A DNA stretch of 64,000 nt from Patescibacteria group bacterium (GCA_041659765.1 JBAZXR010000001.1:531338-595337); one strand, 5' to 3'. Counted from the stretch's first letter, positions 6,020 through 62,243 are shown. Numbers and translations: made by a program. The notes: generated by a model from the sequence alone, not told the origin.

Positions 6020-7990
6020 ATGTTTACCCGCTTTCTTCAAGCCATCATTTCCGCCGGTGCCGCCCTGGCTGTCTTTAGCATTCTAGCCACCGGAATGTAT
6101 TATGTCATGCCGGTAACAACCATCGGCCTGATTGTGTGTGCGGTGGCCGGCTCGGCGATCGTCGCCGTCATCCTGAGGAGCTCCGCGACGAAGGATCTGA
6201 TTGGCAGTGTCATCCCGATAACGGAGGGATCAGAACGGTTACCAATCAGATCCTTCGCTACGCTCAGGATGACTGCATTACTTTCAGTCTCCCTCCTCTC
6301 GCTCGGCCTCTGGTGGCACGCGGTGCTCACACATCCCATTCTCGAATCCGTACGGTCGCCGTGGCTGGTTATCAATTCGGCGAATTTGCTGTGGCTGTTT
6401 ATCCCGGCGGTTTGTGCGGCGGTTTTATTGATAGGAGGACGCGAGGACGGGGCGAGCCCCGTCCGTACAGCCGCGGGGTTCGGTGTAATCGTAATCACGT
6501 TATTTTCCGCGTTGTCATTTGCCGCTGCGGCATATCCCCTCGGTTTCGGTTTTGATCCGTTTCTGCATCGAGCGACCATCCAACATATCGCTGAGCATGG
6601 GACGATCACGCCGAAGCCGCTCTACTACATTGGCGAATATGTGATCGAATTGTTTGCGATGAAGGTGCTCCATTTGCCACTCATGTTGGTCGACGTATTC
6701 TTGGTGCCGCTCTTGGCGGCGACGTTGATTCCGGCGGCGGTGTTTTTGCGGGCGATACGCCAGGGCGGGGCAAGCCCCGCCCCTACCGCGGCGATTTTAT
6801 TATTTCTACCTATCGCCGCATTTGTCCAAACCACACCGCAGGCGTTGGCGTTCGTTTTTACAACGGTCGCGATATTGATCACGCAAAATACAAAAACCGA
6901 CAGCGGGGTTAAAAACCCCGCCTTCCCGATAATCCCATCGATCTTTGCCGTTGCGGCGCTGACCGCGCATCCGATTGCCGGACTCCTCGCCGTCTTCTTC
7001 GTCGTTTTGAATTTCTTGGCCGATAAGAAACGCGCGTGGTTCATCTGGACGTCCGTCTTGGCGACATTCGCCCTTCCCTTTGCATTTATTGCGCAGTCGT
7101 TCAAAGCACATCAGCCTTTTGGCATTCAAATCCCAGGGCTTCACGAAATTGCAGCCCTGCCCCTGTCCTCATTCTTTGGCACGCATTTCAACGCCTGGGG
7201 CGACACGGCGTATTTGGTGATCGGGAACATGTTCCTCGTCACGGTGACGATCGGGATTTTCGGTGCATGGCGAATGCACAAGGGGGCGCCGCAAGGGGCG
7301 TCCGTACGATGGATTCCCTTGATTTGCGCGGGGATTGCGTTTTCGAACTTCTTGATCTTGGGATTATTCTTTGAGTTCCCTTTCTTAATTTCGTACGAAC
7401 GGACGGATTTTGCGGCGCGGATGCTCACCCTGACGGTGTTGTTTTTGATGCCGTATATGCCGTACGCGATGACGCGTGCGAAGGGCGGGGCAAGCCCCGC
7501 CCTTACAGCGCGACGCGCGTTTGGTGTCGCCATTGTCGGCGTTGTATTTGTATCGTCGGTGTACGGCGCGTTCCCACGGTACGACGCATATGCATCTTCA
7601 GCGGGGTTCAATGTGACAAAGGCGGACTTTGACGCCGTTAAGGCCATCGAAGAATACGCCGCCGGACGGGATTACGTCGTTCTTGCGAACCAGGCCACAT
7701 CGTCCGCGGCCATCTCGACTCTCGGTTTCAAAAAATATTATCACGGCGACATCTACTTCTACCCTATCCCCACTGGCGGCCAGCTGTACCAACTCTATCT
7801 CGCCATGGCTGACAAACCGCGTGAAGCGATCATCGACAAAGCTCGTGCACTCACCGGCGCCCAACTGGTCTTCTTCGTCATGGACGATTATTGGTGGGAC
7901 TCCAAACGCGTCGTGGAACAAACAAAAACCATCACGGACATCACCTGGACCTTCGGCGACCACGAGGTGATGGTGATGGTGTTTGAGTAG
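6020..7990 (+). CDS. Large integral membrane protein of unknown function (about 14+ TM helices). Carries four in-frame palindromic micro-elements.
   Basis: 656-aa ORF, strongly hydrophobic, with a soluble C-terminal region. Function unknown; possibly envelope biogenesis or a GT-C-like protein. Confidence 0.7.
   Translation: MFTRFLQAIISAGAALAVFSILATGMYYVMPVTTIGLIVCAVAGSAIVAVILRSSATKDLIGSVIPITEGSERLPIRSFATLRMTALLSVSLLSLGLWWHAVLTHPILESVRSPWLVINSANLLWLFIPAVCAAVLLIGGREDGASPVRTAAGFGVIVITLFSALSFAAAAYPLGFGFDPFLHRATIQHIAEHGTITPKPLYYIGEYVIELFAMKVLHLPLMLVDVFLVPLLAATLIPAAVFLRAIRQGGASPAPTAAILLFLPIAAFVQTTPQALAFVFTTVAILITQNTKTDSGVKNPAFPIIPSIFAVAALTAHPIAGLLAVFFVVLNFLADKKRAWFIWTSVLATFALPFAFIAQSFKAHQPFGIQIPGLHEIAALPLSSFFGTHFNAWGDTAYLVIGNMFLVTVTIGIFGAWRMHKGAPQGASVRWIPLICAGIAFSNFLILGLFFEFPFLISYERTDFAARMLTLTVLFLMPYMPYAMTRAKGGASPALTARRAFGVAIVGVVFVSSVYGAFPRYDAYASSAGFNVTKADFDAVKAIEEYAAGRDYVVLANQATSSAAISTLGFKKYYHGDIYFYPIPTGGQLYQLYLAMADKPREAIIDKARALTGAQLVFFVMDDYWWDSKRVVEQTKTITDITWTFGDHEVMVMVFE
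6446..6470. repeat. Palindromic micro-element, family P1 (GGACGGGGCGAGCCCCGTCCGTACA), in-frame in the CDS at 6020..7990.
   Basis: Perfect palindrome GGACGGGGC-GAGCCCCGTCC. Same core plus the GTCCGTACA flank occurs at 23330..23354. Encodes DGASPVRT. Confidence 0.8.
6764..6783. repeat. Palindromic micro-element, family P1 (GGGCGGGGCAAGCCCCGCCC), in-frame in the CDS at 6020..7990.
   Basis: 20-bp perfect palindrome, identical to the copy at 7484..7503. Encodes GGASPAPT. Confidence 0.85.
6904..6922. repeat. Palindromic micro-element, P2 variant (GCGGGGTTAAAAACCCCGC), in-frame in the CDS at 6020..7990.
   Basis: Same stem as the P2 copies at 14921 and 36941 (GCGGGGTTAATAACCCCGC). Encodes SGVKNPA. 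Confidence 0.7.
7484..7503. repeat. Palindromic micro-element, family P1 (GGGCGGGGCAAGCCCCGCCC), in-frame in the CDS at 6020..7990.
   Basis: Identical to the copy at 6764..6783. Encodes GGASPALT. Confidence 0.85.
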
Positions 7991-8066
7991 GATGGATTGG
8001 TCCTGATCAGGATCCATCCTGAGCGCGAGCGAAGGATCAGACCCTCCCCTCCACCTCAGGAGAGCT
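7991..8066. repeat. Degenerate copy of an intergenic MITE/REP-like element (unit TCCATCCTGAGCGCGAGCGAAGGATC). Overlaps the 3' end of the GIY-YIG gene.
   Basis: Shares the unit with 8431..8455 and, in inverted orientation, with 57283..57311. Also contains the palindrome TCCTGATCAGGA. Confidence 0.7.
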
Positions 8067-8358
8067 CGACGAGCTTCTCAAACAGGTCTTCCCACTTCGG
8101 ATTCTTCGAGGTAACGAGCTCAGCCTTCCTCGCTCGGTTCCATCCCTTCAATTGTTTCTCTCGAAATAATGCCGTGTCTCGATCTGGAGTAGTTTCAAAA
8201 TAGACGAGCTTCACACAGTTATTCTTACTTGCAAATCCAGGCACGAGTTTATCTTTATGTTGCTGAATCCGTTCCGGCAATTGCGTGCTCATCCCAATAT
8301 ACAAAACATTGTTCGTTGGGCTCGCCATGATGTAGACGCCACATGAATCGTCATTCAT
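8056..8358 (-). CDS. Small GIY-YIG nuclease domain protein (URI/YhbQ-like).
   Basis: N-terminal GVYIMASPTNNVLYIGMS (GIY...YIG) and a conserved Glu region in a 100-aa ORF. Flanked on both sides by copies of the palindromic element. Confidence 0.8.
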   Translation of the reverse strand: MNDDSCGVYIMASPTNNVLYIGMSTQLPERIQQHKDKLVPGFASKNNCVKLVYFETTPDRDTALFREKQLKGWNRARKAELVTSKNPKWEDLFEKLVELS

Positions 8359-8377
8359 ACAATGCTTGGAGGTGAAA

Positions 8378-8533
8378 GTCTGACTCTTCGCTCTCGCTCA
8401 GAGTGGGGACCATGATAAATTCTCAAGCATTCCATCCTGAGCCATGCGAAGGATCAAACTTTCACCGGTGAGGGTCGGACTCTTCGCGCTCGCTCAGAGT
8501 GGAGACCGGAATAATTCGCAAGCGATCCATCCT
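8378..8533. repeat. Composite MITE/REP-like palindromic element. Contains a half arm (8382..8406), a full ~73-bp hairpin unit (8431..8503) and a truncated arm (8524..8533).
   Basis: Arms TCCATCCTGAGCCATGCGAAGGATC and GGACTCTTCGCGCTCGCTCAGAGTGGA are mutual inverted repeats. Homologous to 57239..57311 and 7991..8066. Confidence 0.8.
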
Positions 8534-9761
8534 ACCGCCCCACAATCATTCTCTCTTTCCGGTGCTTGATGGCTTCTGCACAAACACGCTCTAGTCGCTC
8601 TGCGTACTTCGGCAGCGAATAGTCGGCGACTGTTTTACTAGTCTCGTCGCGGCGCTGGGCGAATTCGTCCTTGCGTTGATCTAGGATTGTGAGCGCGCGC
8701 AAGAAGTCGCCTCGGTCGCCGGGGATAAACAGGAAGCCGTTTTTACCTTCCTCCACCAGTTCGCCCACGCCGCCAATTCTCGAAGCCAGAATCGGCAAAC
8801 CAGCCTGGAGGCCTTCGTAAATAACCGTTGGAGAATTCTCGTAACACAGGCTCGGCACGACGAGTGCGTCAACAACTCCAAACACGTTCACAATCTCCCC
8901 CGGCGGCATGTAACCCAAGTAAGTGATGCGTTCGTTTTCGCTGGCGTGCTTCTCTGTCCACTTTCTGAGCACCCCGTCACCCGCAATCATGAGGCGCGCA
9001 TCAATCGGCAAGGTCGAAATAGCGTCGACCAAAAAGGCTAGACCCTTATGCTGGGCGAGCTGGCCCACGAACAAAAGTTTCAGCGGTCCGCCAGAACGGC
9101 CTTTCTTTGGCGAAATATCATAGGTCGGTGCCGGGTTAGGCATCACCTCAATGTTAGTACCCGTGAAAAAGCCGGACCGGCGATACATGCGCTCAAGATA
9201 ATGCGACGGCGAAATAACGACGTCCGGATTCTTAAATTTAGCGCGACAAAAAAGCTGGTACACCTTATAGAACGGTTTAATGAACCACGGCGTCTGCTCT
9301 TTACCGAACATGACGAGGCCGGAGGGAACGATAAGCTGCAAATCGTGAATCACGTGCACATGCGGAATCTTCATCTGACGCATGACCTTCGGAATAGACA
9401 GGCCGAGTCCTTTTAGGTTATGCGTAATGACCACGTCCGGCTGTTCATTAACCATAACCTTGCGCACCACCTCCGCTCCATGTCCAGAGAAGCCGTCTAT
9501 TAGATGCCAAAATAATCTGATGAGCCACGGATATTTATAATCGTTCAACGTGAAGTACAAATTGCGCGGATAAAAACGATAAACACGCTCAACCGTTGAG
9601 CGATCCAAAATAATTCCCCTCCCTTCAGAGCGCGGCTGGCCGGTAATCACAAACACGTCATGTCCACGAGCCAGGAGTTCCTGGACCGTGCGAACAATGA
9701 CCGTTTCAGCTCCCCCGCGGGCGTGGGGCGGATAGAGATTTGTAATGATTCCTATCTTCAT
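8532..9761 (-). CDS. Glycosyltransferase family 4 (GT4).
   Basis: 409 aa. N-terminal MKIGIITNLYPPHARGGAETV and a C-terminal GT4 (GT-B) EX7E-like region. Confidence 0.8.
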   Translation of the reverse strand: MKIGIITNLYPPHARGGAETVIVRTVQELLARGHDVFVITGQPRSEGRGIILDRSTVERVYRFYPRNLYFTLNDYKYPWLIRLFWHLIDGFSGHGAEVVRKVMVNEQPDVVITHNLKGLGLSIPKVMRQMKIPHVHVIHDLQLIVPSGLVMFGKEQTPWFIKPFYKVYQLFCRAKFKNPDVVISPSHYLERMYRRSGFFTGTNIEVMPNPAPTYDISPKKGRSGGPLKLLFVGQLAQHKGLAFLVDAISTLPIDARLMIAGDGVLRKWTEKHASENERITYLGYMPPGEIVNVFGVVDALVVPSLCYENSPTVIYEGLQAGLPILASRIGGVGELVEEGKNGFLFIPGDRGDFLRALTILDQRKDEFAQRRDETSKTVADYSLPKYAERLERVCAEAIKHRKERMIVGR

Positions 9762-10834
9762 ACCTTGAGTACTCCGTTATACGCCTGGAGCAATTGGCGT
9801 GCAATAGCCCCGCTGTCATACCTTTCCATAACACGTACGCGAGCGGCTGAGCCCATGATTACTGCGTCTTCTGGGCGATCGGCGAACTTCTGAAGCTGGT
9901 ACGCCAAATCATCTACGTCACCAGGTTTGGCGAGGTAGCCCGTACGGCCTTTTTCGACGAGTGTCCTGACGCCAGGAAGGTCGCTGACAACCGAAGGCAG
10001 GCCTGAAGCAGCGGCCTCGAGGGTGACGAGACCGAAGGCTTCCCCGCCGTTAATGCTCGGCAGTACGTGCACATCTGCAGAGCGATAGACGTTCGGCAGT
10101 TCTGTGTCTGACACGCGACCGAGAAATTTCACGCGGTCGGCGATCATCAAGTCAGAGGCGAGGCGCTCGTAGAATGCCTTGAGGTCGCCATCGCCGGCAA
10201 TCACGAGTCGGGCACTCGGCGCAAGTTTAGCGAAGGCACGCAGAAGAATATCCACGCCTTTGAAGTCGTGCGCTTTGTCGAGGCCGCCGACGAAGAGGTA
10301 GACCACCGACTTCCCCGTAGCCCCCTCTTTGAAAGAGGGGGAACACGCCACACCCGGCGCGAAGCGCGTGCTGTCCACGCCGAAAGGCATTTCGGTCAGG
10401 CCGTCGTGAGAGAGACCGGAGGCTTCTGCGTACTCAAGCGAGCTCACGAAAATCTTTTTGGCGATGAGAAAAATAAATGGTTCGATGAACCAACGATGCA
10501 AGGTAAAAATAACGTTGCGCCAATCCTTTGTCACGGCCTTCATGTGATACGTGAGTACAAGAGGCGTTTTGTGAATTATCGACGCGAGCACAGCAAACAC
10601 GTCCATGCCGTAACACGGATAGTGAACGTGGATCACGTCGAAGCCTTTCAGCTTCATGACAAGTGACGGCATCAACGCTGCGTTGCCGTACGCAAAGAGT
10701 GACTTGGTCGTGCTCGGCTCAAAAACGACCACATCATGGCCAAGGGCTTTAAGAGCGTTGGTCTGGGCTTCGGCAACATGTCCAATACCCCCCTTATAAG
10801 GAGGGAAAACTGCGGAAACGACAGCAATTCGCAT
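9758..10834 (-). CDS. Glycosyltransferase family 4 (GT4). Start probably MRIAVVS; carries an in-frame P3 palindromic element.
   Basis: MRIAVVSAVFPPYKGGIGHV...; the C-terminal GT4 fold is retained. ATGA overlap with the upstream GT4 gene. Confidence 0.75.
   Translation of the reverse strand: MRIAVVSAVFPPYKGGIGHVAEAQTNALKALGHDVVVFEPSTTKSLFAYGNAALMPSLVMKLKGFDVIHVHYPCYGMDVFAVLASIIHKTPLVLTYHMKAVTKDWRNVIFTLHRWFIEPFIFLIAKKIFVSSLEYAEASGLSHDGLTEMPFGVDSTRFAPGVACSPSFKEGATGKSVVYLFVGGLDKAHDFKGVDILLRAFAKLAPSARLVIAGDGDLKAFYERLASDLMIADRVKFLGRVSDTELPNVYRSADVHVLPSINGGEAFGLVTLEAAASGLPSVVSDLPGVRTLVEKGRTGYLAKPGDVDDLAYQLQKFADRPEDAVIMGSAARVRVMERYDSGAIARQLLQAYNGVLKV
10311..10349. repeat. Palindromic micro-element, family P3 (CCCCGTAGCCCCCTCTTTGAAAGAGGGGGAA), in-frame inside the GT4 CDS.
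   Basis: Near-identical to 4178..4216. Encodes SPSFKEGATGKS. Confidence 0.8.
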
Positions 10835-10841
10835 AGATGCC

Positions 10842-11189
10842 CTATTCGTTGGGCTTTTTGACGTTCTCAATGGCTACCGCCCGCACAAGCGATGTCATCT
10901 CCGCGGACAGCTTCTGCTGGGCAATCATGAGCCGATACACGGTGAACGTAAGGACCACAATGGCAGAGTAGACAATGACGTCTGCGCCGCGGCCGATGCC
11001 AACAAAGTTAGCAACAATGTTCGCTAAGTTCGGCACGAGCGCGACCGCGATAACGACGATCCACAAAAGCGTGAAGGCGATGGCCCAATATTTGGAAGCT
11101 TCTTTTTTGGAATACTGCTTCCACGTTTTATAAATGGCGTACGCAGCGAATGAAACAAGGATGATTTGGAAAATCATATTAGCCAACAA
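10842..11189 (-). CDS. DUF2304-family small membrane protein (partner of a GT2 glycosyltransferase).
   Basis: About 3 TM helices; GIGRGADVIVY...YRLMIAQQKLSAEMTSLVRAVAIEN matches the DUF2304 pattern. Lies immediately downstream of, and overlaps, the GT2 gene. Confidence 0.65.
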   Translation of the reverse strand: MLANMIFQIILVSFAAYAIYKTWKQYSKKEASKYWAIAFTLLWIVVIAVALVPNLANIVANFVGIGRGADVIVYSAIVVLTFTVYRLMIAQQKLSAEMTSLVRAVAIENVKKPNE

Positions 11190-11856
11190 GTTTCTTTTTC
11201 AAAATATCGGTAGCCGTAGCCATTGCTTTTAGCGTTGATTGTCCCTTCTGCAACGTCTCCTCGCTGTAGCGAATGGTCACGGGACGCTCGACGTACTTTA
11301 AACGCTTGTTCACAATAATGTCGAGAATCTCTGAAGCATGCGCCATGCGGTCGAGTGAAATACGAACCGACAAACCGGCGTTCCTCGAGAAAGCTCGAAA
11401 GCCGTTATGAGTATCGGTCACTTTAATGCCAGAAAGTCCGCGCGTAAACAGAACTCCAAGCAGGATCATCGCTCGGCGAAGTCCTGGCATATTCTCCGCT
11501 TCGCGCCCAAGAAAACGAGAGCCGAGCACCACGTCAGCCTCGCCCTTCATGATTGGTTCGAGCATCAGCGGAATCTCACCTCCCCGCATCTGCCCATCAG
11601 CGTCAAAATGCACAATCGCCTCCGCGCCAAGAACGTTAAGCGCGTAGTCCATGCCAGTTTGGAGCGACGCCCCCTGGCCGCGGTTTAATATATGCGTCAG
11701 CACATGCGCACCGGCTTTACTAGCAACCTCGCCGGTCTTGTCTCGACTCCCGTCATCGACAACTACCGCGAATGGCACGTACGCCAAAGCATCGCGAACT
11801 GCGTCTGCAATCCGCGCTTCTTCGTTATAGCCAGCAATAACCGCCACCACGCGCAT
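11179..11856 (-). CDS. Glycosyltransferase family 2 (dolichyl/polyprenyl-phosphate hexosyltransferase-like).
   Basis: MRVVAVIAGYNEE...VVVDDGSRDKT...HFDADGQ. DxD and GT2 core motifs in 225 aa. Confidence 0.85.
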   Translation of the reverse strand: MRVVAVIAGYNEEARIADAVRDALAYVPFAVVVDDGSRDKTGEVASKAGAHVLTHILNRGQGASLQTGMDYALNVLGAEAIVHFDADGQMRGGEIPLMLEPIMKGEADVVLGSRFLGREAENMPGLRRAMILLGVLFTRGLSGIKVTDTHNGFRAFSRNAGLSVRISLDRMAHASEILDIIVNKRLKYVERPVTIRYSEETLQKGQSTLKAMATATDILKKKLVG

Positions 11857-11868
11857 AGATGGGGTTAT

Positions 11869-12888
11869 CTAACCTATATTTCCACCATTCGTCAAAAGAA
11901 CCTTATTAGCACGAACGTAATCTATTGCTTTCTTAAGTCCGTCCTCAGTCCTAACGAGCGGAATCCAACCAAGCTTTTCACGAGCTTTATTCAAGGATGG
12001 GAGACCAAGCGGCACCATGTGGGCTGCCTGAGCCTCATAACTAATCGCCACTTCCTCACTTTCCGTCAGCGTCATGATCTGTTTGGCGATATCTGAAATT
12101 TTCACCTCAACATCGCTGCCAAGATTTACGGGACCAATCCCCTTCTCCGCCCGCATCAGACGCGTCAAACCGTCTACCACATCTGTGACATAGGCCAGTG
12201 TTGTCGTTGAGTTCTCATCGCCCATGATTACAATTGGCTGTCCGTCAAGCACATTTAAAATAAAATCTGGAATCTGGTGGCCCTGGAACAACGGCATGCG
12301 CGGACCGAAGGTCCTAAAGATACGGGCAATCTTGCAATCCAATCCGTAAACATCCGCATAAGTGGTGAACATGGTTTCTGCGAAGCGTTTGCCTTCGTTA
12401 AAGCAGGCACGGGGGTTCAAATGATCTAGCACGCCGAGCTCTGACTCATCAATCCCTGCTTTTATGCTCGCATCACGGGCGCCATAAACTGTAGCCGAGG
12501 AAGTTAAAAGGGCACGCGACTTATATTTAACCGCCAAATCAAGAACATTTTTAGTACCCAATGAATTAGTGAGCAAAGCCGGCATCCGATACTTTTCAAA
12601 ACCTTTTACGGCTGTGGGCAGGGCCAAATGATAAATTTCCTGGACACCGAGAAATTTTACTTTAAATGGTTCGAGCTCCGGAAAGGTCTCAAGGTCGAAC
12701 GGAACGGAAATGTCGAGCTTCAAAAACTGGAAGTCGGGATTGCGCAAAAGCGATTCAATATTGCGAACATGCCCCGTAGAAAAGTCATCGACGCAGATGA
12801 CGTGATTCCCTTCTTTGAGAAGCACGTCGCACAAAAACGATCCAATAAATCCTGCGCCTCCCGTAACCAAGACATTTTTTTTATCCAT
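11869..12888 (-). CDS. NAD-dependent sugar epimerase/dehydratase (UDP-glucuronate decarboxylase / UXS-like).
   Basis: VLVTGGAGFIGSFLCDVLL...; extended SDR fold, 339 aa. Confidence 0.65.
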   Translation of the reverse strand: MDKKNVLVTGGAGFIGSFLCDVLLKEGNHVICVDDFSTGHVRNIESLLRNPDFQFLKLDISVPFDLETFPELEPFKVKFLGVQEIYHLALPTAVKGFEKYRMPALLTNSLGTKNVLDLAVKYKSRALLTSSATVYGARDASIKAGIDESELGVLDHLNPRACFNEGKRFAETMFTTYADVYGLDCKIARIFRTFGPRMPLFQGHQIPDFILNVLDGQPIVIMGDENSTTTLAYVTDVVDGLTRLMRAEKGIGPVNLGSDVEVKISDIAKQIMTLTESEEVAISYEAQAAHMVPLGLPSLNKAREKLGWIPLVRTEDGLKKAIDYVRANKVLLTNGGNIG

Positions 12889-12897
12889 ATTATTTAT

Positions 12898-14979
12898 TTA
12901 CCAAGCTCCAAGTGAAGTGCCCAAAGAGCCGATAAGTTTAGAGCCAAGTGTGCCCATTATATTCCCATGCGAAGTAAAAACCTGTACTTCACCGGCGCCA
13001 TGTTCTGGGGCCACCACAATATCCTCTTTACCGTCTACATCTATGTCTGAAACGGCTACCACCGCGCCGGTTTTAGAAGATTGATCACCCACCCAGAACT
13101 GTCCCCATACCGCACCAATCTTGTTAAAGATGCGGATATTGGAGGCCCCTGGCGCACGCGGGGCGGTCACAATCTCGTCTCGATCGTCGCCGTCAAAGTC
13201 GCCGGACGACAGTGAGATGCCATAAGTCATGGTTGGCGCATATGCCAAGAAATCCACCAAAGCTTTTCCATCATTATCATACACGGCTACACGGGGGATT
13301 CCAGACAAGGCGCCAAACACCATTTCTTGATCATAGTCCTCATCAATGTCAGCCACCGTGGCGGTGAGCGGAGTGTCGGCGGCGAACCCGACCACCGGAA
13401 ACCGGAATTTCTCTACACCATCTTGGCCGAACACCACAGCATCAGTGCTGACTCCGGCCCCAACCACGGCTACAATGTCATCCGAAAAATCCCCGTCCAC
13501 ATCACCCAGGGCCACAGAGACTCCTTGTCTTGTTTTCTCATCAAAAGCAAAGAACGAACGAATGAGTGCGCCAGTAGCGGTGAAAATTCGTATCTGTGGA
13601 CCGCCGCCTTTTCCAGCCGAAGCAATAACCTCAGGAACACCATCGCCCGTCAGATCAGCCAGGCCCACCCGAACACCGCCCAGAAAAGTTGGCGCAAAAA
13701 CATAGAACTCTGCATATGGCGTACCGTCAGCCTTATATACTCTGACGTTCGGCGGCTCGCCAGGCGCTGCGCCGAGGGCAATAAACGAATATGCCGAATC
13801 TCCAGTCAAACCGCCACTACTCGCCGCTGGCGGCTTAGTGGTTGAAGGAATTGGCGCAACTGGGAGTGGTCCGGCCGGGGCGGTGCCCGCCAATGATTGA
13901 GCCACGGATAGCGCGCGAGCGATATTCAATCGGCCGACGCCTAGCGAACCCGGACCAGATAAGGTCACTTTCACCGGGTCAACCGACAGCTTGATGGCAG
14001 TCCTGACTTGATCAACCGTCAGCGTTGGGAAAGCTGAAAGCATCAAGGCGGCGGCTCCGGCCACCATTGGGCTAGCGGCGGACGTGCCATCCCAAGAAAG
14101 CTGGGTACCAAATAATCCAGTGTCTCCGTCACTCAAAGTTAAACCCTGAATATTCGTGCCGGGCGCGCTTAAATCCGCACAGGCGTTTCCAAAATTAGTG
14201 AATTCAGTTTCAGAATCACTCTCGTCAGTAGCGGCCACGCCGATCACCCAATCCTCCGTTTCTGATCTGAAACAGGCCGGGTAGACCGGCGAGCTGTTCA
14301 CATCCCTTCCATCATTCCCGAGCGCGGCCGTAATGGTCACCCCGGCATGATAAGCATCAATCACCGCCTGCCGCAAAGCCGAACCAGACACGTCCCCCAC
14401 AAAACTGAGATTAATTACTTTCGCCCCATTTTTCACCGCGTAACGAATAGCGCTGGTCGCCTCCTCTTCTCCCCCGCCGCCTTGTTCATCTAAAATTCTG
14501 AGCGGCATGATACGAACGTGCCAATTAATTCCCGCGTAACCAATACTATTATTCGTGGCTGCTCCAATAATGCCGGAGATCAGAGTTCCGTGCGATGTAG
14601 CAAGCGCTGAAGAATTCGCGTCCGGAATAGTCCCCTTGGGAACCGGAGAATTGTCATGATCCACAAAATCCCAACCTTCGACATCATCAACATATCCGTT
14701 CCGATCATCATCCAGGCCATTGCCCGGAATCTCATTAGTGTTCTTCCAAAGATTGTGGACTAAATCTGGATGATCAAGATCCACCCCAGTATCAAGAACG
14801 GCCACGATCACCGAGCCATCACCGACCGACGTATCCCAAGCGGCCTCAACATTAATCAGGCGCAAGTACCACTGCTCAGCAAGATATGGATCGTTCGGGG
14901 TTTTTGCCAAGACGCACAAAGGCGGGGTTAATAACCCCGCCATCACAAAACAGATCGCGACGTTCCCAAGAAAGCGCAT
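12898..14979 (-). CDS. Secreted subtilisin-like (S8) serine protease with C-terminal FG-GAP/VCBS-like repeats.
   Basis: Catalytic triad blocks DTGVDLDHPDL, HGTLISGIIGA and GTSAASPMVAGAAAL. C-terminal repeats of the DxDGDGxxD type (LADLTGDGVPEVI etc.). Signal peptide present. Confidence 0.85.
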   Translation of the reverse strand: MRFLGNVAICFVMAGLLTPPLCVLAKTPNDPYLAEQWYLRLINVEAAWDTSVGDGSVIVAVLDTGVDLDHPDLVHNLWKNTNEIPGNGLDDDRNGYVDDVEGWDFVDHDNSPVPKGTIPDANSSALATSHGTLISGIIGAATNNSIGYAGINWHVRIMPLRILDEQGGGGEEEATSAIRYAVKNGAKVINLSFVGDVSGSALRQAVIDAYHAGVTITAALGNDGRDVNSSPVYPACFRSETEDWVIGVAATDESDSETEFTNFGNACADLSAPGTNIQGLTLSDGDTGLFGTQLSWDGTSAASPMVAGAAALMLSAFPTLTVDQVRTAIKLSVDPVKVTLSGPGSLGVGRLNIARALSVAQSLAGTAPAGPLPVAPIPSTTKPPAASSGGLTGDSAYSFIALGAAPGEPPNVRVYKADGTPYAEFYVFAPTFLGGVRVGLADLTGDGVPEVIASAGKGGGPQIRIFTATGALIRSFFAFDEKTRQGVSVALGDVDGDFSDDIVAVVGAGVSTDAVVFGQDGVEKFRFPVVGFAADTPLTATVADIDEDYDQEMVFGALSGIPRVAVYDNDGKALVDFLAYAPTMTYGISLSSGDFDGDDRDEIVTAPRAPGASNIRIFNKIGAVWGQFWVGDQSSKTGAVVAVSDIDVDGKEDIVVAPEHGAGEVQVFTSHGNIMGTLGSKLIGSLGTSLGAW
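14921..14946. repeat. Palindromic micro-element, family P2 (GGCGGGGTTAATAACCCCGCCATCAC), lying in-frame within the signal peptide of the S8 protease.
   Basis: Identical core plus ATCAC flank at 36941..36965. Encodes MAGLLTPP. Confidence 0.85.
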
Positions 14980-15000
14980 ATGCGCACAGTATACCCGAAC

Positions 15001-15753
15001 CTACTTCACAATACATGTCGTTTTCAGGGCCTGGAGTTCATCCGCAATACTTTGGTTCTTGGGCGAAAGAGTTTTGGCTACAGAAAAATGGTCAATAGCG
15101 CGTTGGCAATCTCCAGCGTTCTGATACCACCGACCAAGCTGCACCATGTTCCAGGAAGTCTGCCCGCGCTTGGCCACGTAAACTTCTAAAAGTTTTTTCA
15201 CCGAATCCTGGTCAGCCGGGAAATGCACCTCCAAGAGCTCGACTAAATTAATATAAAAACTTTCTGGTCCCTGGCCAGCACTGAGTTCTATAGCGTGCTC
15301 AAAGGCTTTTCTGGCACCAGAATAATCACCCATCTTGGCCAGTACGTTGCCGTAAGAATTGGTTGCCGCGTAGTTAAGCGGATTGCCTTTTAGTTCGGCT
15401 TCATATGCTTCACGAGAAGTGATCAGGTCGCCAAGAACCAAGGCATAGTTACCCACCGCATCATATCTATTCAAATTCACCTCTCCGCCATCAGCCTGAT
15501 CAGCCGCTAAAGCTGCCTGCGCGGTCCTCAATTGATTCTCAACATACGCCCGCGTAGCTGGATCCATATCAACCTGAACATAAGTGGTCAGTCCGCGATA
15601 TTTAGCCGACGGTCCAACCAAGAGGAAAACTCCATACCCTAAAGACAGGAGAAGAACGAGAGAAACGGCACCAATAATATAGTGTGTGCGAGTCAAAGCC
15701 ATATGGGCGAAAGTATAGAAAAACCTGGTAAAAAGAGCAACCCCGCGTTTCAT
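15001..15753 (-). CDS. TPR-repeat protein with an N-terminal membrane anchor.
   Basis: 250 aa. TM segment IIGAVSLVLLLSLGYGVFLLV followed by TPR-like helical repeats (AxxxxG...Y patterns). Confidence 0.65.
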   Translation of the reverse strand: MKRGVALFTRFFYTFAHMALTRTHYIIGAVSLVLLLSLGYGVFLLVGPSAKYRGLTTYVQVDMDPATRAYVENQLRTAQAALAADQADGGEVNLNRYDAVGNYALVLGDLITSREAYEAELKGNPLNYAATNSYGNVLAKMGDYSGARKAFEHAIELSAGQGPESFYINLVELLEVHFPADQDSVKKLLEVYVAKRGQTSWNMVQLGRWYQNAGDCQRAIDHFSVAKTLSPKNQSIADELQALKTTCIVK

Positions 15754-15803
15754 CCCTGTACCCTCAAGCGAGAGGGAGGATAAAACACGGGGTCACGATG
15801 GTC

Positions 15804-18764: not shown

Positions 18765-18816
18765 ATAAAAATAGCAAAAAAATGCTGTTTTGTCAAGTAT
18801 TTTACCTAATGTTAGC

Positions 18817-18862
18817 GAAGAAAAACCAAAATCCCCCTCAGCTTTCGCTTTGGGGGATTTTG
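18817..18862 (-). terminator. Rho-independent terminator for the giant surface-protein gene.
   Basis: Hairpin AAATCCCCCTCAGCTTTCGCTTTGGGGGATTT followed on the minus strand by TTTGGTTTTTCTT. Confidence 0.6.
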
Positions 18863-18900
18863 CTGTCTTAAACCTTTTGGCTTAGGACGTCACACTAGTC

Positions 18901-21900
18901 TTAGAAGACCAATGTTCCGCCGGAGACCGTGAGGCTGTCGACCAAGTACGAACCCCAGTAATCACCGGTGTTCGTAGCCGAAGCTGCGGAGTTAGTTCCA
19001 TCATCCTGCCAGAGCAAGGTGCCCGGGAGGCGCTGGATGTCGTCCGTAAGATCGTATGCCGTACCAGTGAGCGTAGCATCAGATGTGTAGATTCTGGAAC
19101 CAAGGTATCCACGAACAACGTAGAGGTTGTGAGTTGCGATACCGGTCACCAACATCTTTTCATCTGTAGAAGCCACCGTCGTAGCATCAGCCGTGCTGTA
19201 GTTGATCACATCGCCTACCTTGAAGGCAGTGCCGTCATCAACTGCGAGCGTGTTAGCCGTTTCCAAGAGATCCGTCACGTTCGAAGCGTCAGCAACGTTC
19301 AAGTACGTTGAAACGATTGGATCGGTCGGAAGATCGAAACGGATAGAGTCGTCGTTGGCTGAGCTTGCACCAGTTGAGTCAAAGTACACAGCGAAGTTAT
19401 TCGAGGTGCCCTTAGCTACAACCTCAGCAACTGGGAGCGCGATGCCCACAAAGCTGAGATCCTGGGTGAAGTTCGTAGTGTCACAAGCTGCACCTGTTGA
19501 CTGGTAAAGTGTCCAGTCAGCATCTGCAGTGTCCAACGTCTGAGACGTGCCATCCATCGTCAAGTTGTATAGATCGAAGTCGGCAGTCGTCGTTGCGACA
19601 GCTGGGTTATCCGTGTCACATTCGTTCCAGTCAACACTGGTAGCGTCTGTGTTGGAAGTGTCGTTATCCGTCAAAGTCACCTTGAAGAGCAGCTTGTTCA
19701 ATACTACGTCTTCGTTAGAAGAAGCAGCAACTGAGAAGCGGAGCACTTCAGAGCGGCCTGGAACAGCGCTACCGGAAGGTGAAGAGGAGCTGAGTGTAAC
19801 CACCGGCTTAGTTTCCTTAACCACGAAGGTAGGAACACTGTCGGTTGCGAACACATCATCACCAAGATCAGCAATTCCTGAAGCTGCCTCGTCAAGCGTG
19901 AAGCCAGAACCGGCTCCAGTTGCCTTGAACGATTCGCTGCCGGAGTTGTCTCCATCAGAGAAGGCCATACGGATCTTTTCGTTGCTGGTAGCGGAACCAC
20001 CAGAATCACGATCCGTAGGAGGCAAGTTCACGTAGACCTTAACATCCTTAGGTGTACCAACCGGTACGTACATCAATAGACCAGAGAACGTCGCAGCGTT
20101 TCCAGACATAGAGGCCGTAGCCGTACCCGTGGTGCCGTCGGCCTTAGGGTAAGAGAGGGTCACGAGAGAGATGTTGTTAGCGTAGACACTGGAATCAGCT
20201 GTAGAAGCCGTTCCAAGCATATCGTCTTCAGCCTGTTCTTCCGTGAAAGACAGCGTCTGAACGTTGAAGGATTCAAGTGTCGCTGCGAAGCGATACTGAG
20301 CTACTTCTACGTTGTTGGTACCTGTCAGCGCGAAGTCTGCGCTTGGGGTGCTTGAACCAACAGTCACTGAAAGCGTACCGGAATCAGATACCGTGACAGT
20401 GCGAGTAGGTGCAGTTCCACCGTTCACCGCGTTGCCCGTAGCTGTAACCGAGTTGCTTGAAGAATCTTCAGCTGTAATGTTGGTACCAGCCAAAGCGATG
20501 TCGAATGCGAAGAACGCATCGCCAGTCGTTGAGGTGTTAGCAAAGTTACACTGAACAGTCATGTTCTTAACGGCACCGGCTGCAATAGTCCAGCTCATGG
20601 TGCTGAAACGAATAGTCTGACCGTTAGTTGCTGGAGCTTCTGGACCGGCTACGCGCGTAACACCGTCATAGAGCGAGCAGGAGTCAACGTAATCGTTAAC
20701 GTCTGCGCTCTCAGAGGTTGTGCTAACGCCACCACCGATATCGTAAGTACCGCTCACAGACGTGTCCTGACCGTAAGCAGAAAGCGTCAGGTCAGTGATC
20801 GTTACTGGAGAAGCCAAACCAGTAGTCATAGTGAAGCCGACCACAGATACGTTCTGTGTACCGTCAACAGTGGTGACGCTGGTTGGCGTGCTGGCCAAGG
20901 AAACTACCAAGGAAGCCTGTCTGGCAACCTGGGTGTAACCAGTGATGTCTGAACCAGGGATGATATCCGCGGTAGCAAGAGCATCGCCGTTCGTGTCTTC
21001 CGTAACAAGACCACTCATGTCAAAGATGGCAGCAAGGGATTCACCAGAGGTGAGGCCGTTGTCTACGTCAGCCGTGACCGCCAAGTTCAATGTCTCACCG
21101 GCGTTCAAGGAGAAGTCATCTGTGAAGTCAATGATCTGAAGAGCGTCTTCTGCAGTACCAGTCAAGCTGGTTTCTGAAGAAGCGTCATCCGTAGTCGTGT
21201 CAAGCTCCAAAGGACCCATGATTACAGCGCCGGTGTCAGCGTTGATGATCTTGATGTCCTTCAAGTTAGCTTCAGAACCGGAGTTAATCAAACCGTCATC
21301 ATCAGCGTCACCAGTTTCCTGACCTTCTGTAACGGTGCCATCGTCGTCATCATCAGCAGCTACCTGGATGTCCAGGTCCTTAATGGTGATGAACTGAGTA
21401 GCCGTGACCGAGAATTTCAAGAGGGTCTGGTCCTGAGAATCTACCTGGACGTCGCCAGCAGCTGGGCCATTGAAAGCAAACGTAAGTTTGCCGCCCTTAA
21501 CCGTGCTGAAGGAACAGTTACCAGATGAAGATGTGCAGGAAGCACCGTCATAAGTACCAACGGTTCCGGTATCAACCGTGAGGCCGAATCCGAAGTCACC
21601 GCCGATAGCTACGATGTCAACATTGTTGTCGATGAACACCTTAACGGTGTCAGCTGACTGTCCACCAATATCCGCGGATACTGAGAAGATGTTGTTGCCA
21701 CCTTCATTGATGTGGAAAGGATGTGCGGAGAGATCAAAGACCACCCAGTCACCGGAGGAGTTAACACCAGTGGTAAGAAGAACACTGCCATCCCACAGAC
21801 GGAAGTCTGAGTGATCAGAAGCGTTGTCTACCTTAACGGTGATAGCGGAGATGTCAGCTGCTTCGGAGCCGTTAGCGGCTGCCTTGAAGGAACCGATTTC

Positions 21901-23154
21901 TGCATCCTGAGCGCCAACCGTTGGGTCAGCGATCGTGCCGGACTTTGTGATCAAGAGAGTTCCAGCATCAGCACCAGTGAAGGTGAAGATGTTACCCGTG
22001 ATTGGGAAGGAACCGCTCACTGATCCTGCAGACACTACGTCAGCAGAGTTGGCAACCTTGAAGCCGAACGTATCAGCTGCTACCTGGGAGGTGGAAGTGG
22101 TCACGCGCACCGTGTAGGTGTGCATGCTGTTGGCAGCGATGGAGCGGTTCAAGTTGTTGAAAGATACCTGGCGAGTGGAGGAGTTCACAGTGCGTGATTC
22201 CGTCAAACGCGTGCTACCTTCGTACAAGTAAACGCTAGAAATGTTGTTGGTGGAACCAGCTCCAATCATGGAGAGGGTTACGCCGCTAAACGTTGCTGCT
22301 GCGCTACCTGCCTGTACGTTGAAAGAAAAGACCTGCACGGAGTTCGATCCACCTGGGAGCGAAGCGCCGGCTGGCATGGAAGAAGCTGCGGAGACCGTCA
22401 GGCCGCCCGTAGAAACTACCGTACCAGTTACCGTCTGTGCGTCATCGGACACCGAAGCTTCCTTCGTGGTCAAATCTGCACCAGCGGACAAGGCACTATC
22501 TACAACACCGGCGCCATCCATGACGTACATGGACTGGAGACCGTTAGCTGACATACCAGCTGAGGATACCAAGCGCTTTGCACCATCCCAGTTAAGGTAG
22601 GTGTTTCCAGCACTCGAGTACATCATGCCGTTGTAAGCTGTTGCACTCATAAGAGATGCACCAACCGTGTAGTCCGTGAAGAAGACATCTGGCACGTCCA
22701 TGATGCGCTGGTTCCAGTCGGATCCAGCGTAAGCGACGGCCACTGCTTCTGTTTCAATCCAGTAAATCTTACCGTTGCGGCCTACTGCGTAGGTCTTCGG
22801 GTCAGAGGTCACCTTGATCCATGAAGAACCTGGGCGGAACACGATGTTGCCACCAAGAGTAATGTCAGAGATCGTGCTGTCAGAGACAGTCATGACGCCG
22901 CTGAAATCAGCTACGCCAGAGCTGTTGGAGTGCCAGCTTGAGTATGTTTTGAGGTTAGGGTACGTGTAGCGCATACCGTCATAACCGTAGTAGTAAACCG
23001 TAGAGAGCGAAGCGCTCCGGATACGGTCACCAGCGGCTGCAGCGTGCGTCACGGCTGGGCTCATAAGAGCACCGGCGCCAATCGAGAAAGCGATCGTCGC
23101 TGCAGCTACTGCGGCAGAGAGAGCGCGCTTTCCTGTTTCTAGAACATGTTGCAT
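18901..23154 (-). CDS. Giant (~1417 aa) secreted surface protein, rich in T/S/G/D and probably beta-rich. Putative adhesin or S-layer-like. The true start is likely MQHVLETGKRA at 23154.
   Basis: Long ORF with signal peptide AFSIGAGALMSPAVTHA and low-complexity, Ig-like repetitive composition. The ORF-track N-terminal extension (to 23355) runs through intergenic palindromes. Confidence 0.75.
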   Translation of the reverse strand: MQHVLETGKRALSAAVAAATIAFSIGAGALMSPAVTHAAAAGDRIRSASLSTVYYYGYDGMRYTYPNLKTYSSWHSNSSGVADFSGVMTVSDSTISDITLGGNIVFRPGSSWIKVTSDPKTYAVGRNGKIYWIETEAVAVAYAGSDWNQRIMDVPDVFFTDYTVGASLMSATAYNGMMYSSAGNTYLNWDGAKRLVSSAGMSANGLQSMYVMDGAGVVDSALSAGADLTTKEASVSDDAQTVTGTVVSTGGLTVSAASSMPAGASLPGGSNSVQVFSFNVQAGSAAATFSGVTLSMIGAGSTNNISSVYLYEGSTRLTESRTVNSSTRQVSFNNLNRSIAANSMHTYTVRVTTSTSQVAADTFGFKVANSADVVSAGSVSGSFPITGNIFTFTGADAGTLLITKSGTIADPTVGAQDAEIGSFKAAANGSEAADISAITVKVDNASDHSDFRLWDGSVLLTTGVNSSGDWVVFDLSAHPFHINEGGNNIFSVSADIGGQSADTVKVFIDNNVDIVAIGGDFGFGLTVDTGTVGTYDGASCTSSSGNCSFSTVKGGKLTFAFNGPAAGDVQVDSQDQTLLKFSVTATQFITIKDLDIQVAADDDDDGTVTEGQETGDADDDGLINSGSEANLKDIKIINADTGAVIMGPLELDTTTDDASSETSLTGTAEDALQIIDFTDDFSLNAGETLNLAVTADVDNGLTSGESLAAIFDMSGLVTEDTNGDALATADIIPGSDITGYTQVARQASLVVSLASTPTSVTTVDGTQNVSVVGFTMTTGLASPVTITDLTLSAYGQDTSVSGTYDIGGGVSTTSESADVNDYVDSCSLYDGVTRVAGPEAPATNGQTIRFSTMSWTIAAGAVKNMTVQCNFANTSTTGDAFFAFDIALAGTNITAEDSSSNSVTATGNAVNGGTAPTRTVTVSDSGTLSVTVGSSTPSADFALTGTNNVEVAQYRFAATLESFNVQTLSFTEEQAEDDMLGTASTADSSVYANNISLVTLSYPKADGTTGTATASMSGNAATFSGLLMYVPVGTPKDVKVYVNLPPTDRDSGGSATSNEKIRMAFSDGDNSGSESFKATGAGSGFTLDEAASGIADLGDDVFATDSVPTFVVKETKPVVTLSSSSPSGSAVPGRSEVLRFSVAASSNEDVVLNKLLFKVTLTDNDTSNTDATSVDWNECDTDNPAVATTTADFDLYNLTMDGTSQTLDTADADWTLYQSTGAACDTTNFTQDLSFVGIALPVAEVVAKGTSNNFAVYFDSTGASSANDDSIRFDLPTDPIVSTYLNVADASNVTDLLETANTLAVDDGTAFKVGDVINYSTADATTVASTDEKMLVTGIATHNLYVVRGYLGSRIYTSDATLTGTAYDLTDDIQRLPGTLLWQDDGTNSAASATNTGDYWGSYLVDSLTVSGGTLVF

Positions 23155-23330
23155 AAAGTTACAGAAACCATTTTCCCCTTTTAAGGGGTAAAGAGATAGA
23201 GGTTTGCACGGGCCTGCGGCCCCGACCTTTGAAGCGTGCTTACCCGGGATGCGTTGAACGCAGTCCCTTTCGGGAGGGCATCGTGCGATGCCCTGCCTGA
23301 AGGAAATGCCTTGCTCTATTCTGAGACGGG
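23155..23330 (-). other. Structured leader / intergenic region containing five consecutive GC-rich stem-loops.
   Basis: Palindromes CCCCTTTTAAGGGG (23177..23190), GGGCCTGCGGCCC, GCGTTCAACGC, GGGCATCGTGCGATGCCC (23276..23293) and the P1 element (23330..23349). Confidence 0.5.
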
Positions 23331-24476
23331 GACGGGGCAAGCCCCGTCCGTACAACTCGCTTCGCTCGTTGCCGCTTCGGCTTTGGCGGCTTCTTCCGCG
23401 GCCTTAGCGTCGGCTTCGGCCTTAGCTTCGGCGTCAGCCCTGGTCTGCATAATGAGGATTTCTGTTTCCGCAATGTTCGCCTCAAGTTTGAGCAGTTCTG
23501 CGTCTATCCCCTGGAGCGTAGCGAAGGCGCTTCTGTAACCACCGGCGGCGAAACCGTTCATAGCCTCCGGAATCTGTAGCTTGGTTTGCTTAATCACGTA
23601 GCTCAGTCTCTTTAGGTCATCGCCGGAAGGAATCCCCTTCACTCCGTCAAACATCTTCACTCCGAGCACCGTCTTGCTAATAGTGTCTAACCGATGCTCA
23701 TCGAAGGTTTGTCTGGCCTCTATAGATCCGAGCTCCTTAGTGAACATGGCCTTCAGTTCAACGGTTGATTTCTCTGTAGCTCCTTGCTCATGGACATCTA
23801 CCGCAACGGTAGTTGCGACAGTCTGCGCCTCCTTCACGGCCTGCTTTGCGTCAACGGTTTCCGTGCCGGCTGCTGAAGTTGAGTTGGTCGATGCCGTTTC
23901 TTCGATCACTGCCTTCATCGAGTCGATCTTATTCTGCACGTCAGTCACGACGGCGAGTGCCGTGGACGAACCAACACTGTCTTTCAAGTTTTTCAAATCG
24001 GCTGAGGCCTGAGAAAGTTCCGAGGCGTATTCCACCATGGCTGTCTTAGCGAGTGCCTGATGGCCCTCGTCCGTAGATCCTGATGAGCGAAGTTCTGCCG
24101 CTTCTCGCAATCTGCGCTCGGCGAACTCGGTATGGAGCACAGCGCGACGATCGAGCGACGCCAACCGAAGCTGAGCCTGTTCCGTAATACGTTTTACTGA
24201 GTAGAGGGTTTCGCCCGGCAAGCTCGACGAAGCCGCGCTCACCGTAGAAAGACTACCGGCAAAAAGAGTAACTGAAGCCACACCGATAGTTACCGGCTTA
24301 GAAATAAAAGAACTGACATACCAAGAGACGTAAGACTTGGAAGTCTGGCGAACTGGCAAGTCAGCGCTCACACGTGAAAGGAGGCGGGACTTAGCCGCGC
24401 CGTGCTCAGAAAGAGAAAGGGCCCCTGCTCGGGGATTATTTTTCAAACTCTTAAGTTGTGATAGAAGGTTCGACAC
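23316..24476 (-). CDS. DUF5667-like membrane protein, a candidate anti-sigma factor. It has a cytoplasmic N-terminus, one TM helix and a long helical extracytoplasmic domain.
   Basis: Motif PGETLYSVKRITEQAQLRL follows the TM helix. 26-nt overlap with the upstream ECF sigma gene. Confidence 0.6.
   Translation of the reverse strand: MSNLLSQLKSLKNNPRAGALSLSEHGAAKSRLLSRVSADLPVRQTSKSYVSWYVSSFISKPVTIGVASVTLFAGSLSTVSAASSSLPGETLYSVKRITEQAQLRLASLDRRAVLHTEFAERRLREAAELRSSGSTDEGHQALAKTAMVEYASELSQASADLKNLKDSVGSSTALAVVTDVQNKIDSMKAVIEETASTNSTSAAGTETVDAKQAVKEAQTVATTVAVDVHEQGATEKSTVELKAMFTKELGSIEARQTFDEHRLDTISKTVLGVKMFDGVKGIPSGDDLKRLSYVIKQTKLQIPEAMNGFAAGGYRSAFATLQGIDAELLKLEANIAETEILIMQTRADAEAKAEADAKAAEEAAKAEAATSEASCTDGACPVPVSE
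23330..23354. repeat. Palindromic micro-element, family P1 (GGACGGGGCAAGCCCCGTCCGTACA), forming the last codons (TDGACPV) of the anti-sigma-like gene.
   Basis: Same core and GTCCGTACA flank as 6446..6470. Confidence 0.8.
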
Positions 24477-32221: not shown

Positions 32222-32224
32222 CAG

Positions 32225-32256
32225 AAAACCGTCGAGCTGAGCTCGACGGTTTTCGT
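32225..32256. terminator. Bidirectional hairpin terminator between the orphan fragment and the convergent GT4 gene.
   Basis: AAAACCGTCGAGCTGAGCTCGACGGTTTTCG. Confidence 0.6.
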
Positions 32257-42096: not shown

Positions 42097-42101
42097 TGAA
42101 A

Positions 42102-62136: not shown

Positions 62137-62243
62137 ATTTCATCAAACATTTTACCACATCCCGGGGTTGTTCGGCATCCGTTAACGTGATACGATGGAC
62201 GCCGAACGAGGGTCGACACCTGGGTCGACCCCTACCTCAAAAT

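Follow-up and report, generated by a model that had tools for sequence, protein, structure and literature searches.

Tagged 24-nt hairpin repeats in frame in two genes of a Patescibacteria genome and their resemblance to GTAG-tagged repetitive extragenic palindromes

Host genes and repeat units

The window analysed here is a stretch of 64,000 nucleotides (64 kb) from a Patescibacteria group bacterium (GCA_041659765.1, JBAZXR010000001.1:531338-595337), about 52% GC and about 94% coding by greedy open reading frame (ORF) calling. Two of its genes contain copies of a short GC-rich hairpin repeat, referred to here as P1, which we compare with repetitive extragenic palindromes (REPs). REPs are short hairpin-forming repeats thought to be spread via single-stranded DNA by REP-associated tyrosine transposases (RAYTs), which are HUH tyrosine transposases similar to those of the insertion sequences IS200/IS605. 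The first of the two host genes encodes a membrane protein which is 100% identical to a hypothetical protein from a Patescibacteria group bacterium assembled from metagenomic data, encoded on a contig of 897,219 bp. This gene holds three P1 copies; it also contains a hairpin of a second family and what may be a decayed unit, and all five lie in short loops. The second gene encodes a DUF5667 protein and carries a fourth P1 copy on its opposite strand; in the orthologous loci it follows a gene for an ECF-type sigma factor. Positions, strands and sequences of these features are presented in Table 1.

The 20-mer GGRCGGGGCRAGCCCCGYCC has four exact matches (6445-6464, 6763-6782, 7483-7502 and 23330-23349) while dinucleotide shuffles expect 0.01; copy counts and shuffles cover the 64-kb window. 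The original prediction of four GC-rich copies, three in the membrane-protein gene and one in the DUF5667 gene, is thereby borne out, with the start of copy 4 placed correctly and the starts of copies 1-3 off by one. All four copies fit GGRCGGGGCRAGCCCCGYCC-NTAC as 24-mers (expected 0.00), and no further copy of GGRCGGGGCRAGCCCCGYCC-NTAC is found in the window even with up to three mismatches. Three of the four copies fall in one gene of 1971 bp, and the chance of at least three doing so is 1.1e-4. Two copies have a common 3' flank, GTCCGTACA, as had been noticed earlier, and the NTAC within this flank belongs to the element.

Each unit is 24 nt in length, equal to eight codons, and consists of 9-bp arms around a 2-nt centre, followed by NTAC as an unpaired tail. 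The core is not the perfect 20-bp palindrome proposed at first, as the inverted arms enclose an AA/GA centre which is non-palindromic, and because of this centre the reverse strand matches GGRCGGGGCRAGCCCCGYCC only with two mismatches. Tail and hairpin read on the complement as a four-base tag followed by the hairpin, the tag being GTAG in one copy (copy 2), GTAC in two (copies 1 and 4) and GTAA in one (copy 3). RNA folding of each copy gives an 8-bp GC stem closed by a tetraloop, CAAG, CGAG or CUUG, and in copy 3 the stem is lengthened to 11 bp via flanking AA/TT.

The same reading frame, G GRC GGG GCR AGC CCC GYC C, is used by all four copies (p = 0.037 given the first copy) and corresponds to the self-symmetric frame of the core. 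This shared frame leads to a peptide of Gly, Ala, Ser and Pro, while another frame would give GRGKPRPY, and the unit in sense orientation is without a stop codon. The translations originally given for the copies in the membrane-protein gene, (E)DGASPVRT, GGASPAPT and GGASPALT, are right. The reading of copy 4 on the minus strand as TDGACPV also stands, but these are not the very last codons of the gene since PVSE comes between them and the TAG stop.

In the hydropathy profile of the membrane protein, the five element sites (residues 143-150, 249-256, 295-302, 422-429 and 489-496) coincide with short hydrophilic turns between predicted membrane helices. Copy 4 is located in the disordered C-terminal tail of the DUF5667 protein. 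Members of this family end in a hypervariable tail of Ala, Glu, Lys and Pro, and the TDGACPV segment is present only in the window protein.

Hairpins directly followed by NTAC number nine in the window as compared to 2.05 expected. Canonical units of the form GGG...CCC+NTAC number six, namely the four P1 copies and two related tagged hairpins of the GGGTCGAC type (4553-4578 and 62210-62235), both of which have canonical tags. Five orthologues of the membrane-protein gene (9.6 kb) contain 13 canonical units, all 13 in sense orientation, as compared to three in about 132 kb of other Patescibacteria sequence; orthologous copies in this census are not independent of each other. The membrane-protein gene is clearly a hot spot for canonical units. 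All four copies, and five of the six related copies, are gene-internal, whereas GTAG-tagged REPs are predominantly extragenic.

The strand which carries the GTAG-hairpin is the minus strand in five of the six related copies, a sample too small for significance, and GC skew and gene orientation suggest that the minus strand is the lagging-strand template. Neither observation is used as evidence here.

Table 1. Positions of hairpin units, host genes and further features in the window, with the state of the corresponding site in orthologues of the membrane protein (P0002 to P0005) where aligned
Feature	Position	Strand	Sequence and tail	Product, peptide and setting	Same site in orthologues
P1 copy 1 (site 1)	6445..6468	+	GGACGGGGCGAGCCCCGTCC + GTAC	DGASPVRT, residues 143-150; gene 6020..7990	P1 unit in P0002 and P0004; 7 codons fewer in P0003 and P0005
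P1 copy 2 (site 2)	6763..6786	+	GGGCGGGGCAAGCCCCGCCC + CTAC; sole canonical tag among P1 copies	GGASPAPT, residues 249-256	P1 unit in P0002; 9 codons fewer in P0003; GGGTCGACGCCAAGGTCGACCC + CTAC in P0004; GCGGGGTTAATAACCCCGC in P0005
P1 copy 3 (site 3)	7483..7506	+	GGGCGGGGCAAGCCCCGCCC + TTAC	GGASPALT, residues 489-496	P1 unit in P0002; GGGTCGACGCGCGGGTCGACCC + CTAC in P0004; other sequence in P0003 and P0005
P1 copy 4	23330..23353	+	GGACGGGGCAAGCCCCGTCC + GTAC	TDGACPV; antisense to gene 23316..24476 (-)	
Hairpin at site 6903	6903		GCGGGGTTAAAAACCCCGC		GGGTCGAC-type hairpins with CTAC in P0002 and P0004; empty in P0003 and P0005
Possible decayed unit	7283..7311	+	GGGGCGCCGCAAGGGGCGTCC + GTAC; arms no longer pair	GAPQGASV, residues 422-429, loop	Perfect GGGCCGATACATGGATCGGCCC + GTAC hairpin in P0004
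Related tagged hairpin, other stem	4553..4578	-	GGGTCGACGCAAGGGTCGACCC + CTAC	GSTQGSTPT, in frame in a variable linker; gene 3712..5400 (-)	
Related tagged hairpin	62210..62235	+	GGGTCGACACCTGGGTCGACCC + CTAC	Extragenic; ends 10 nt upstream of gyrB start codon 62245	
Host gene	6020..7990	+		656-aa polytopic membrane protein, no Pfam match, conserved in Patescibacteria	
Host gene	23316..24476	-		DUF5667 protein; JGI calls a shorter 351-aa version	
Second hairpin family	6903-6921; 14922-14940; 34694-34712; 36941-36959; variant 55381-55399		GCGGGGTTAAnAACCCCGC, without GTAG-type tag		
Third hairpin family	10317-10341		CCCCCTC...GAGGGGG, followed by CTAC	PPSYEEGG-like peptide	
Conserved intergenic stretch	~23150-23315	-	About 150 nt, four hairpins		
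Toxin-complex-like or Rhs-like gene	25538-31210			1890-aa protein with SpvB, TcdB-middle, FG-GAP and RHS-repeat domains	
Intergenic hairpin	32224-32254		Perfect stem of 14-15 bp, flanking A/T runs		
Intergenic hairpin	42098-42125		Perfect stem of 12 bp, flanking A/T runs		
gyrB	from 62245, runs off window	+			

Comparison of orthologous loci

We aligned the membrane-protein gene codon by codon with its orthologues at the syntenic loci L121 to L124, the proteins of which are 69-76% identical to that of the window. This alignment, proposed with the original prediction, shows segments that are present, absent or replaced, at sites which lie in loops (Table 1). It had been stated that orthologues with conserved residues but no palindromic DNA would speak against an inserted element; the orthologues aligned do not show this, as the same loops are empty or encode other hairpins. 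The units are in-frame insertions in intact genes which vary in presence among orthologues, as in the palindromic elements of Rickettsia. Short loops are seen at sites 1 and 2 in more distant homologues of the membrane protein. Among 120 homologues the GGASP-type peptide is limited to the three closest relatives, and GSTxxSTPT peptides extend to homologues of 47% identity. At the position of the related hairpin 4553..4578, the orthologues in L121 and L123 carry non-palindromic sequence.

Alignment of the DUF5667 protein, likewise proposed, gives closest orthologues without the C-terminal copy. Copy 4 is missing at the DNA level from the 87%-identical orthologue (locus L128), while in the relative at locus L129 a different hairpin, GTAC-GGGCTTGGCCGCGCTAGGCCC-CTAC, is located directly after the stop codon of the DUF5667 orthologue.

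Conservation of the units in the DNA exceeds what the encoded protein would demand. Between the window and P0002, 16 of 19 four-fold sites inside units match, while elsewhere the figure is 128 of 265 (Fisher p = 0.003). Covariation is seen at stem position 3 (GGAC/GTCC versus GGGC/GCCC), and site-specific variants are common to orthologues. It follows from these shared variants, the synonymous conservation and the covariation of the stems that the units have been inherited vertically and kept as hairpins, even though site 1 of P0004 and site 2 of P0002 hold decayed copies.

Occurrence of the 20-mer in other phyla

A scan for the 20-mer with one genome per species gave at least 120 loci, mostly from Acidobacteriota and also from Planctomycetota, Chloroflexota, Armatimonadota, Oscillospiraceae, Actinomycetota and others; the 120 listed include none from Patescibacteria. 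The matches listed contain 130 copies, of which 110 are GGGCGGGGCAAGCCCCGCCC and 96 are followed by CTAC, which is GTAG plus a GC-rich hairpin on the complement. Among these 130, 86 are intergenic by a crude gene call and most of the others are near ORF ends. Several of the listed copies pair as inverted doublets with a second GTAG-tagged hairpin. A metagenome scan with the variant GGACGGGGCRAGCCCCGTCCGTAC returned three matches, all intergenic and on contigs of about 59-60% GC which are not from Patescibacteria, and did not recover the window's own genome.

RAYT-like genes

At a locus from Terriglobia (L057) an ORF of 222 aa which has HUH and tyrosine motifs begins 24 nt downstream of the 24-mer. 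It matches Y1_Tnp of Pfam, and among NCBIfam models it scores best with REP-associated tyrosine transposase. A homologue of the same ORF follows the 24-mer at a distance of about 15 nt at a locus from Chloroflexota (L020). As a separate observation, a second copy of the 24-mer is located in frame inside the RAYT-like ORF of L057, after the HUH motif, where it encodes VGAGLAPP; L057:1771-2486 takes in this copy and the one upstream of the ORF.

A RAYT-like gene is also present in the close Patescibacteria relative represented by L129, as an ORF of 176 aa (11268-11798) with the HUH motif NHFHGII and the tyrosine motif NYIRENP. Its identity to the L057 ORF is 40%; it matches Y1_Tnp at 1.9e-10 and scores 30 bits with the IS200 model; a search of solved structures gave marginal matches only. 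Two hairpins precede this ORF, one of them tagged GTAA, and these have GGGCCG stems similar to hairpins within the membrane-protein orthologues of L123 and L124. Gene and upstream hairpins together form a cassette of about 600 bp (L129:11197-11800) between a terminator and a promoter.

Comparison with known systems

Nunvar is said to have worked on GTAG-tagged REPs and RAYTs in 2010. Di Nocera et al. (2013, PMC3733652) described 24 families of GTAG-tagged REPs from more than 80 species of 8 phyla, their stems being 6-13 bp and their loops 2-3 nt long, and group-3 REPs have been described as GTAG with an 8-bp perfect palindrome and a 3-nt loop, 23 nt in total (Corneloup 2021, PMC8266576). With their 9-bp arms and 2-nt centre, the window units have the short GC-rich stem-loop expected of REPs (20-40 bp, 6-13-bp stem, short loop). 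REPs form multi-copy families dispersed in a genome; the window has four copies plus two related ones in 64 kb, while 0.01 are expected for the 20-mer. The resemblance to group-3 type REPs, e.g. the SMAG repeats of Stenotrophomonas maltophilia, extends to the unpaired four-base tag beside a GC-rich perfect stem of 8-9 bp, the very short loop, the total length of 23-24 nt and the coexistence of several stem variants, and copies inside genes are documented for this superfamily. The 24-mer in other phyla is mostly intergenic among the matches listed and in two loci lies just upstream of RAYT-like genes, and the sister genome has a RAYT-like gene preceded by tag-like hairpins.

Differences from these REPs are also evident. 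Of the six related window copies, five are in-frame parts of genes instead of lying downstream of them, and the fourth base varies in three of the four window tags (GTAC, GTAA) while the published degeneracy concerns positions 2 and 3. The window has neither inverted doublets nor a RAYT gene, and the host belongs to the Patescibacteria, with a genome of about 0.9 Mb.

The likeness to the in-frame Rickettsia palindromic elements (RPEs) drawn by the original prediction is apt, as both are in frame, in intact genes and variable in presence among orthologues. We know of no RAYT link for RPEs. As far as the work of Ogata et al. (2000, 2002) is represented in PMC3733652, RPEs share with the window units the insertion of palindromic repeats into intact genes of a reduced genome and the addition of peptides at tolerant surface or loop positions, while RPE-1 is much longer (about five times according to the earlier note). 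The short RPE-4 and RPE-6 have been equated with short REPs, with a CGTC rather than a GTAG tag (PMC3733652), and RPEs belong to another phylum and have no sequence similarity to the window units. Membership of an RPE family is ruled out by the 24-nt size, the GTAG-type rather than CGTC tag and the Patescibacteria host.

REPs wholly inside ORFs are recognised exceptions and have been documented most often in Opitutus terrae (PMC3733652). Like the window units, these are GTAG-type elements wholly within long ORFs, sometimes two per gene, and add short extra peptides; however, more than half of them are dimers or groups encoding 20-30 residues, many in DNA repair genes (Di Nocera 2013, Figure 7, Additional file 3), whereas each insert in the window consists of one 8-codon unit and the proteins concerned are those of membrane and envelope. 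The supplementary files of Di Nocera 2013 contain neither the core sequences nor any of the peptides GGASP, GASPAP, GAGLAP and GACPA. Elements of the IS200/IS605 type are similar in that an HUH tyrosine transposase recognises a single-stranded hairpin and a four-base guide at the hairpin foot picks the cleavage site, but in those elements a transposase of their own is encoded between two unlike hairpin ends over about 0.7-2 kb, while the window has a lone 24-nt hairpin. A miniature inverted-repeat transposable element (70-300 bp with 15-30-bp terminal inverted repeats) is ruled out as the single 24-nt hairpin is too short, and a transcription terminator is ruled out as the units have no T-run and are inside genes. 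No Rfam family is found in the window at gathering thresholds, with a chance-level match only near copy 4, and a tRNA scan of the window found none.

Other features of the window

The second hairpin family also has a member at L124:1985-2003. Two second-family copies have a longer identical stretch, GTGATGGCGGGGTTATTAACCCCGC, which encodes FVMAGLLTP in the signal-peptide regions of an S8 peptidase and a cyclophilin, and orthologues have unrelated sequence at these sites. Members of the third family are located at L124:2671-2693 and 6046-6068 and at L121:5245-5265 and 5652-5672; they encode PPSYEEGG-like peptides inside genes, and the stem has an AAGGAGG-like run.

The intergenic stretch of about 150 nt between the DUF5667 gene and the downstream gene for a protein of about 1410 aa is strongly conserved with its four hairpins (L128:8081-8257, L129:6750-6878) and has no Rfam match; it may be a leader or regulatory RNA. 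The ORF listed as 18901..23355 is probably over-extended at its 5' end. The toxin-complex-like or Rhs-like protein stands out given a genome size of about 0.9 Mb. The two long intergenic hairpins at 32224-32254 and 42098-42125 look like ordinary bidirectional terminators unrelated to the P1 family. Three minus-strand ORFs listed over gyrB are spurious. At about 62.15 kb the genes change orientation, a switch which may point to a replication origin in the vicinity.

Discussion

A repeat with a tag-plus-hairpin architecture is present in the window, its insertion is polymorphic among orthologues, the 24-mer has RAYT-like neighbours elsewhere, and a close relative has a RAYT-like gene. We therefore consider it likely that the four copies belong to the GTAG-tagged REP superfamily, which a RAYT spreads now or spread formerly on single-stranded DNA, and that they have been retained in frame as harmless peptides. 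A RAYT would move the hairpin units through single-stranded DNA, and as the genome is about 94% coding, almost any insertion would land in a gene. Since the unit is exactly eight codons without a stop in the sense orientation, copies could survive at tolerant spots, and they would persist where a small neutral Gly/Ala/Ser/Pro peptide is tolerated, as in inter-helix loops and the disordered C-terminal tail. The common frame would then reflect selection on the encoded peptide. With GTAC or GTAA as the tag in three of the four copies and no RAYT gene in the window, these copies may be relics, and we infer that those tagged GTAC or GTAA are now immobile.

Several points weigh against this assignment to the REP superfamily. 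Only one of the four copies has the canonical GTAG tag, and a GTAC tag abolishes cleavage by the S. maltophilia enzyme (PMC8266576). Random transposition would not predict that three of the four copies share one gene, and the copy number given here is that of the 64-kb window. The L129 ORF scores 58.8 bits on the NCBIfam RAYT model, below the cut-off of 80 bits, and the stems of the hairpins beside it differ from those of the four window copies. Its cassette is missing at the syntenic spot in the window (18765-18900), as it is in L128. No RAYT-like sequence is found in the window by tblastn with an E. coli RAYT sequence and the ORFs of L057 and L129 as probes, and no homologue of the L129 protein above 43% identity comes from the 897,219-bp contig among the best 120 matches. 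A clean empty site or exact insertion boundary is not seen among the available relatives, which include no close strain.

It could be argued, as the main alternative, that the REP look is secondary and the hairpins are kept for a role in the mRNA or DNA of their host genes, e.g. as a pause after a membrane helix, in mRNA stability, or as a protein-binding or recombination site. The conservation of synonymous sites between the window and P0002 and the covarying stems are suggestive of such a role, as are the position of every membrane-protein site in a short loop which directly follows a predicted membrane helix, the concentration of sense-oriented tagged hairpins in the orthologues of this gene and the related copy immediately upstream of gyrB. 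However, the same loops are empty in some orthologues with an intact gene, so the hairpin is not needed there; copies decay in some lineages (P0004 at site 1, P0002 at site 2), and the 24-mer is intergenic in other phyla. Recent common ancestry or homogenisation between copies would also explain the hairpin conservation. We therefore regard this explanation as unlikely. Distinctly unlikely, too, is a combination of the two ideas, in which REP-type hairpins have been recruited as functional coding parts in this Patescibacteria clade, selected in mRNA or DNA at the loops after membrane helices, with loops refilled by variants. Recruited hairpins could be translational pause sites which aid membrane insertion, or recombination hot spots which diversify exposed loops.

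DNA uptake sequences are fixed words of 9-12 nt which occur about once per kb and are evenly spread, and Patescibacteria encode competence-like machinery. The motif might in principle be such an uptake sequence or another genome-wide signal, placed in the least harmful coding frame as in Neisseria and Pasteurellaceae, and the one frame common to all four copies with its bland Gly/Ala/Ser/Pro peptide would agree with this. But four copies per 64 kb, three of them in one gene, do not have the density and spread of an uptake sequence. Relatives have several stems with the same tag and shape, which suits recognition of a hairpin rather than of a fixed word, and the identical sequence is present in many unrelated phyla and in two loci adjoins RAYT-like genes. 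A signal sequence is thus very improbable. A peptide motif conserved since ancient times, or GC-rich codons arising by chance, in either case with incidental palindromy, would account for GGASP-type peptides occurring three times in one protein and being kept in P0002 and P0004. This is contradicted by the 0.01 copies expected from shuffles, by orthologues which carry nothing, or other peptides from other hairpins, at the same sites, by the unit on the other strand of an unrelated protein's gene, and by the restriction of the peptide to the three closest relatives among 120 homologues; we consider it scarcely credible. The original prediction was right to see a defined element here, in view of the shuffles and of loops which are empty, filled or otherwise filled in the orthologues.

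REP/RAYT systems have been described mainly in Proteobacteria and a few other phyla, and ultra-small Patescibacteria genomes are usually thought to be poor in mobile DNA. The literature searched has no paper linking REPs or RAYTs with Patescibacteria or the Candidate Phyla Radiation, and the novelty claimed by the original prediction is plausible in respect of this host group. It does not extend to the kind of element, as the GTAG-tagged REP architecture and gene-internal REPs are known (PMC3733652). Since the element class, its spread across phyla and its location inside genes are already published, P1 is a new host and case rather than a new kind of element. Its stand-out features are copies which are almost all gene-internal, varied hairpins in the same membrane-protein loops and the very small host genome.

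If the assignment to the GTAG-tagged REPs is right, the host range of REPs would be widened, as the same type of element, together with a RAYT-like gene in a sister genome, would be present in ultra-small Patescibacteria genomes. The case would parallel that of Rickettsia: where intergenic space is scarce, elements would persist as in-frame 8-codon inserts in loops, an independent example of selfish hairpins adding peptides to proteins. Functional recruitment of REPs in coding sequence, if true, would be a use not described before. Annotators should expect hairpin-encoded peptides in the genomes of this group. The five inter-helix loops of one membrane protein with their lineage-specific hairpins offer a natural system for the study of insertion tolerance and target choice, and the presence of one 24-mer in many phyla raises the question of how REP/RAYT pairs spread.

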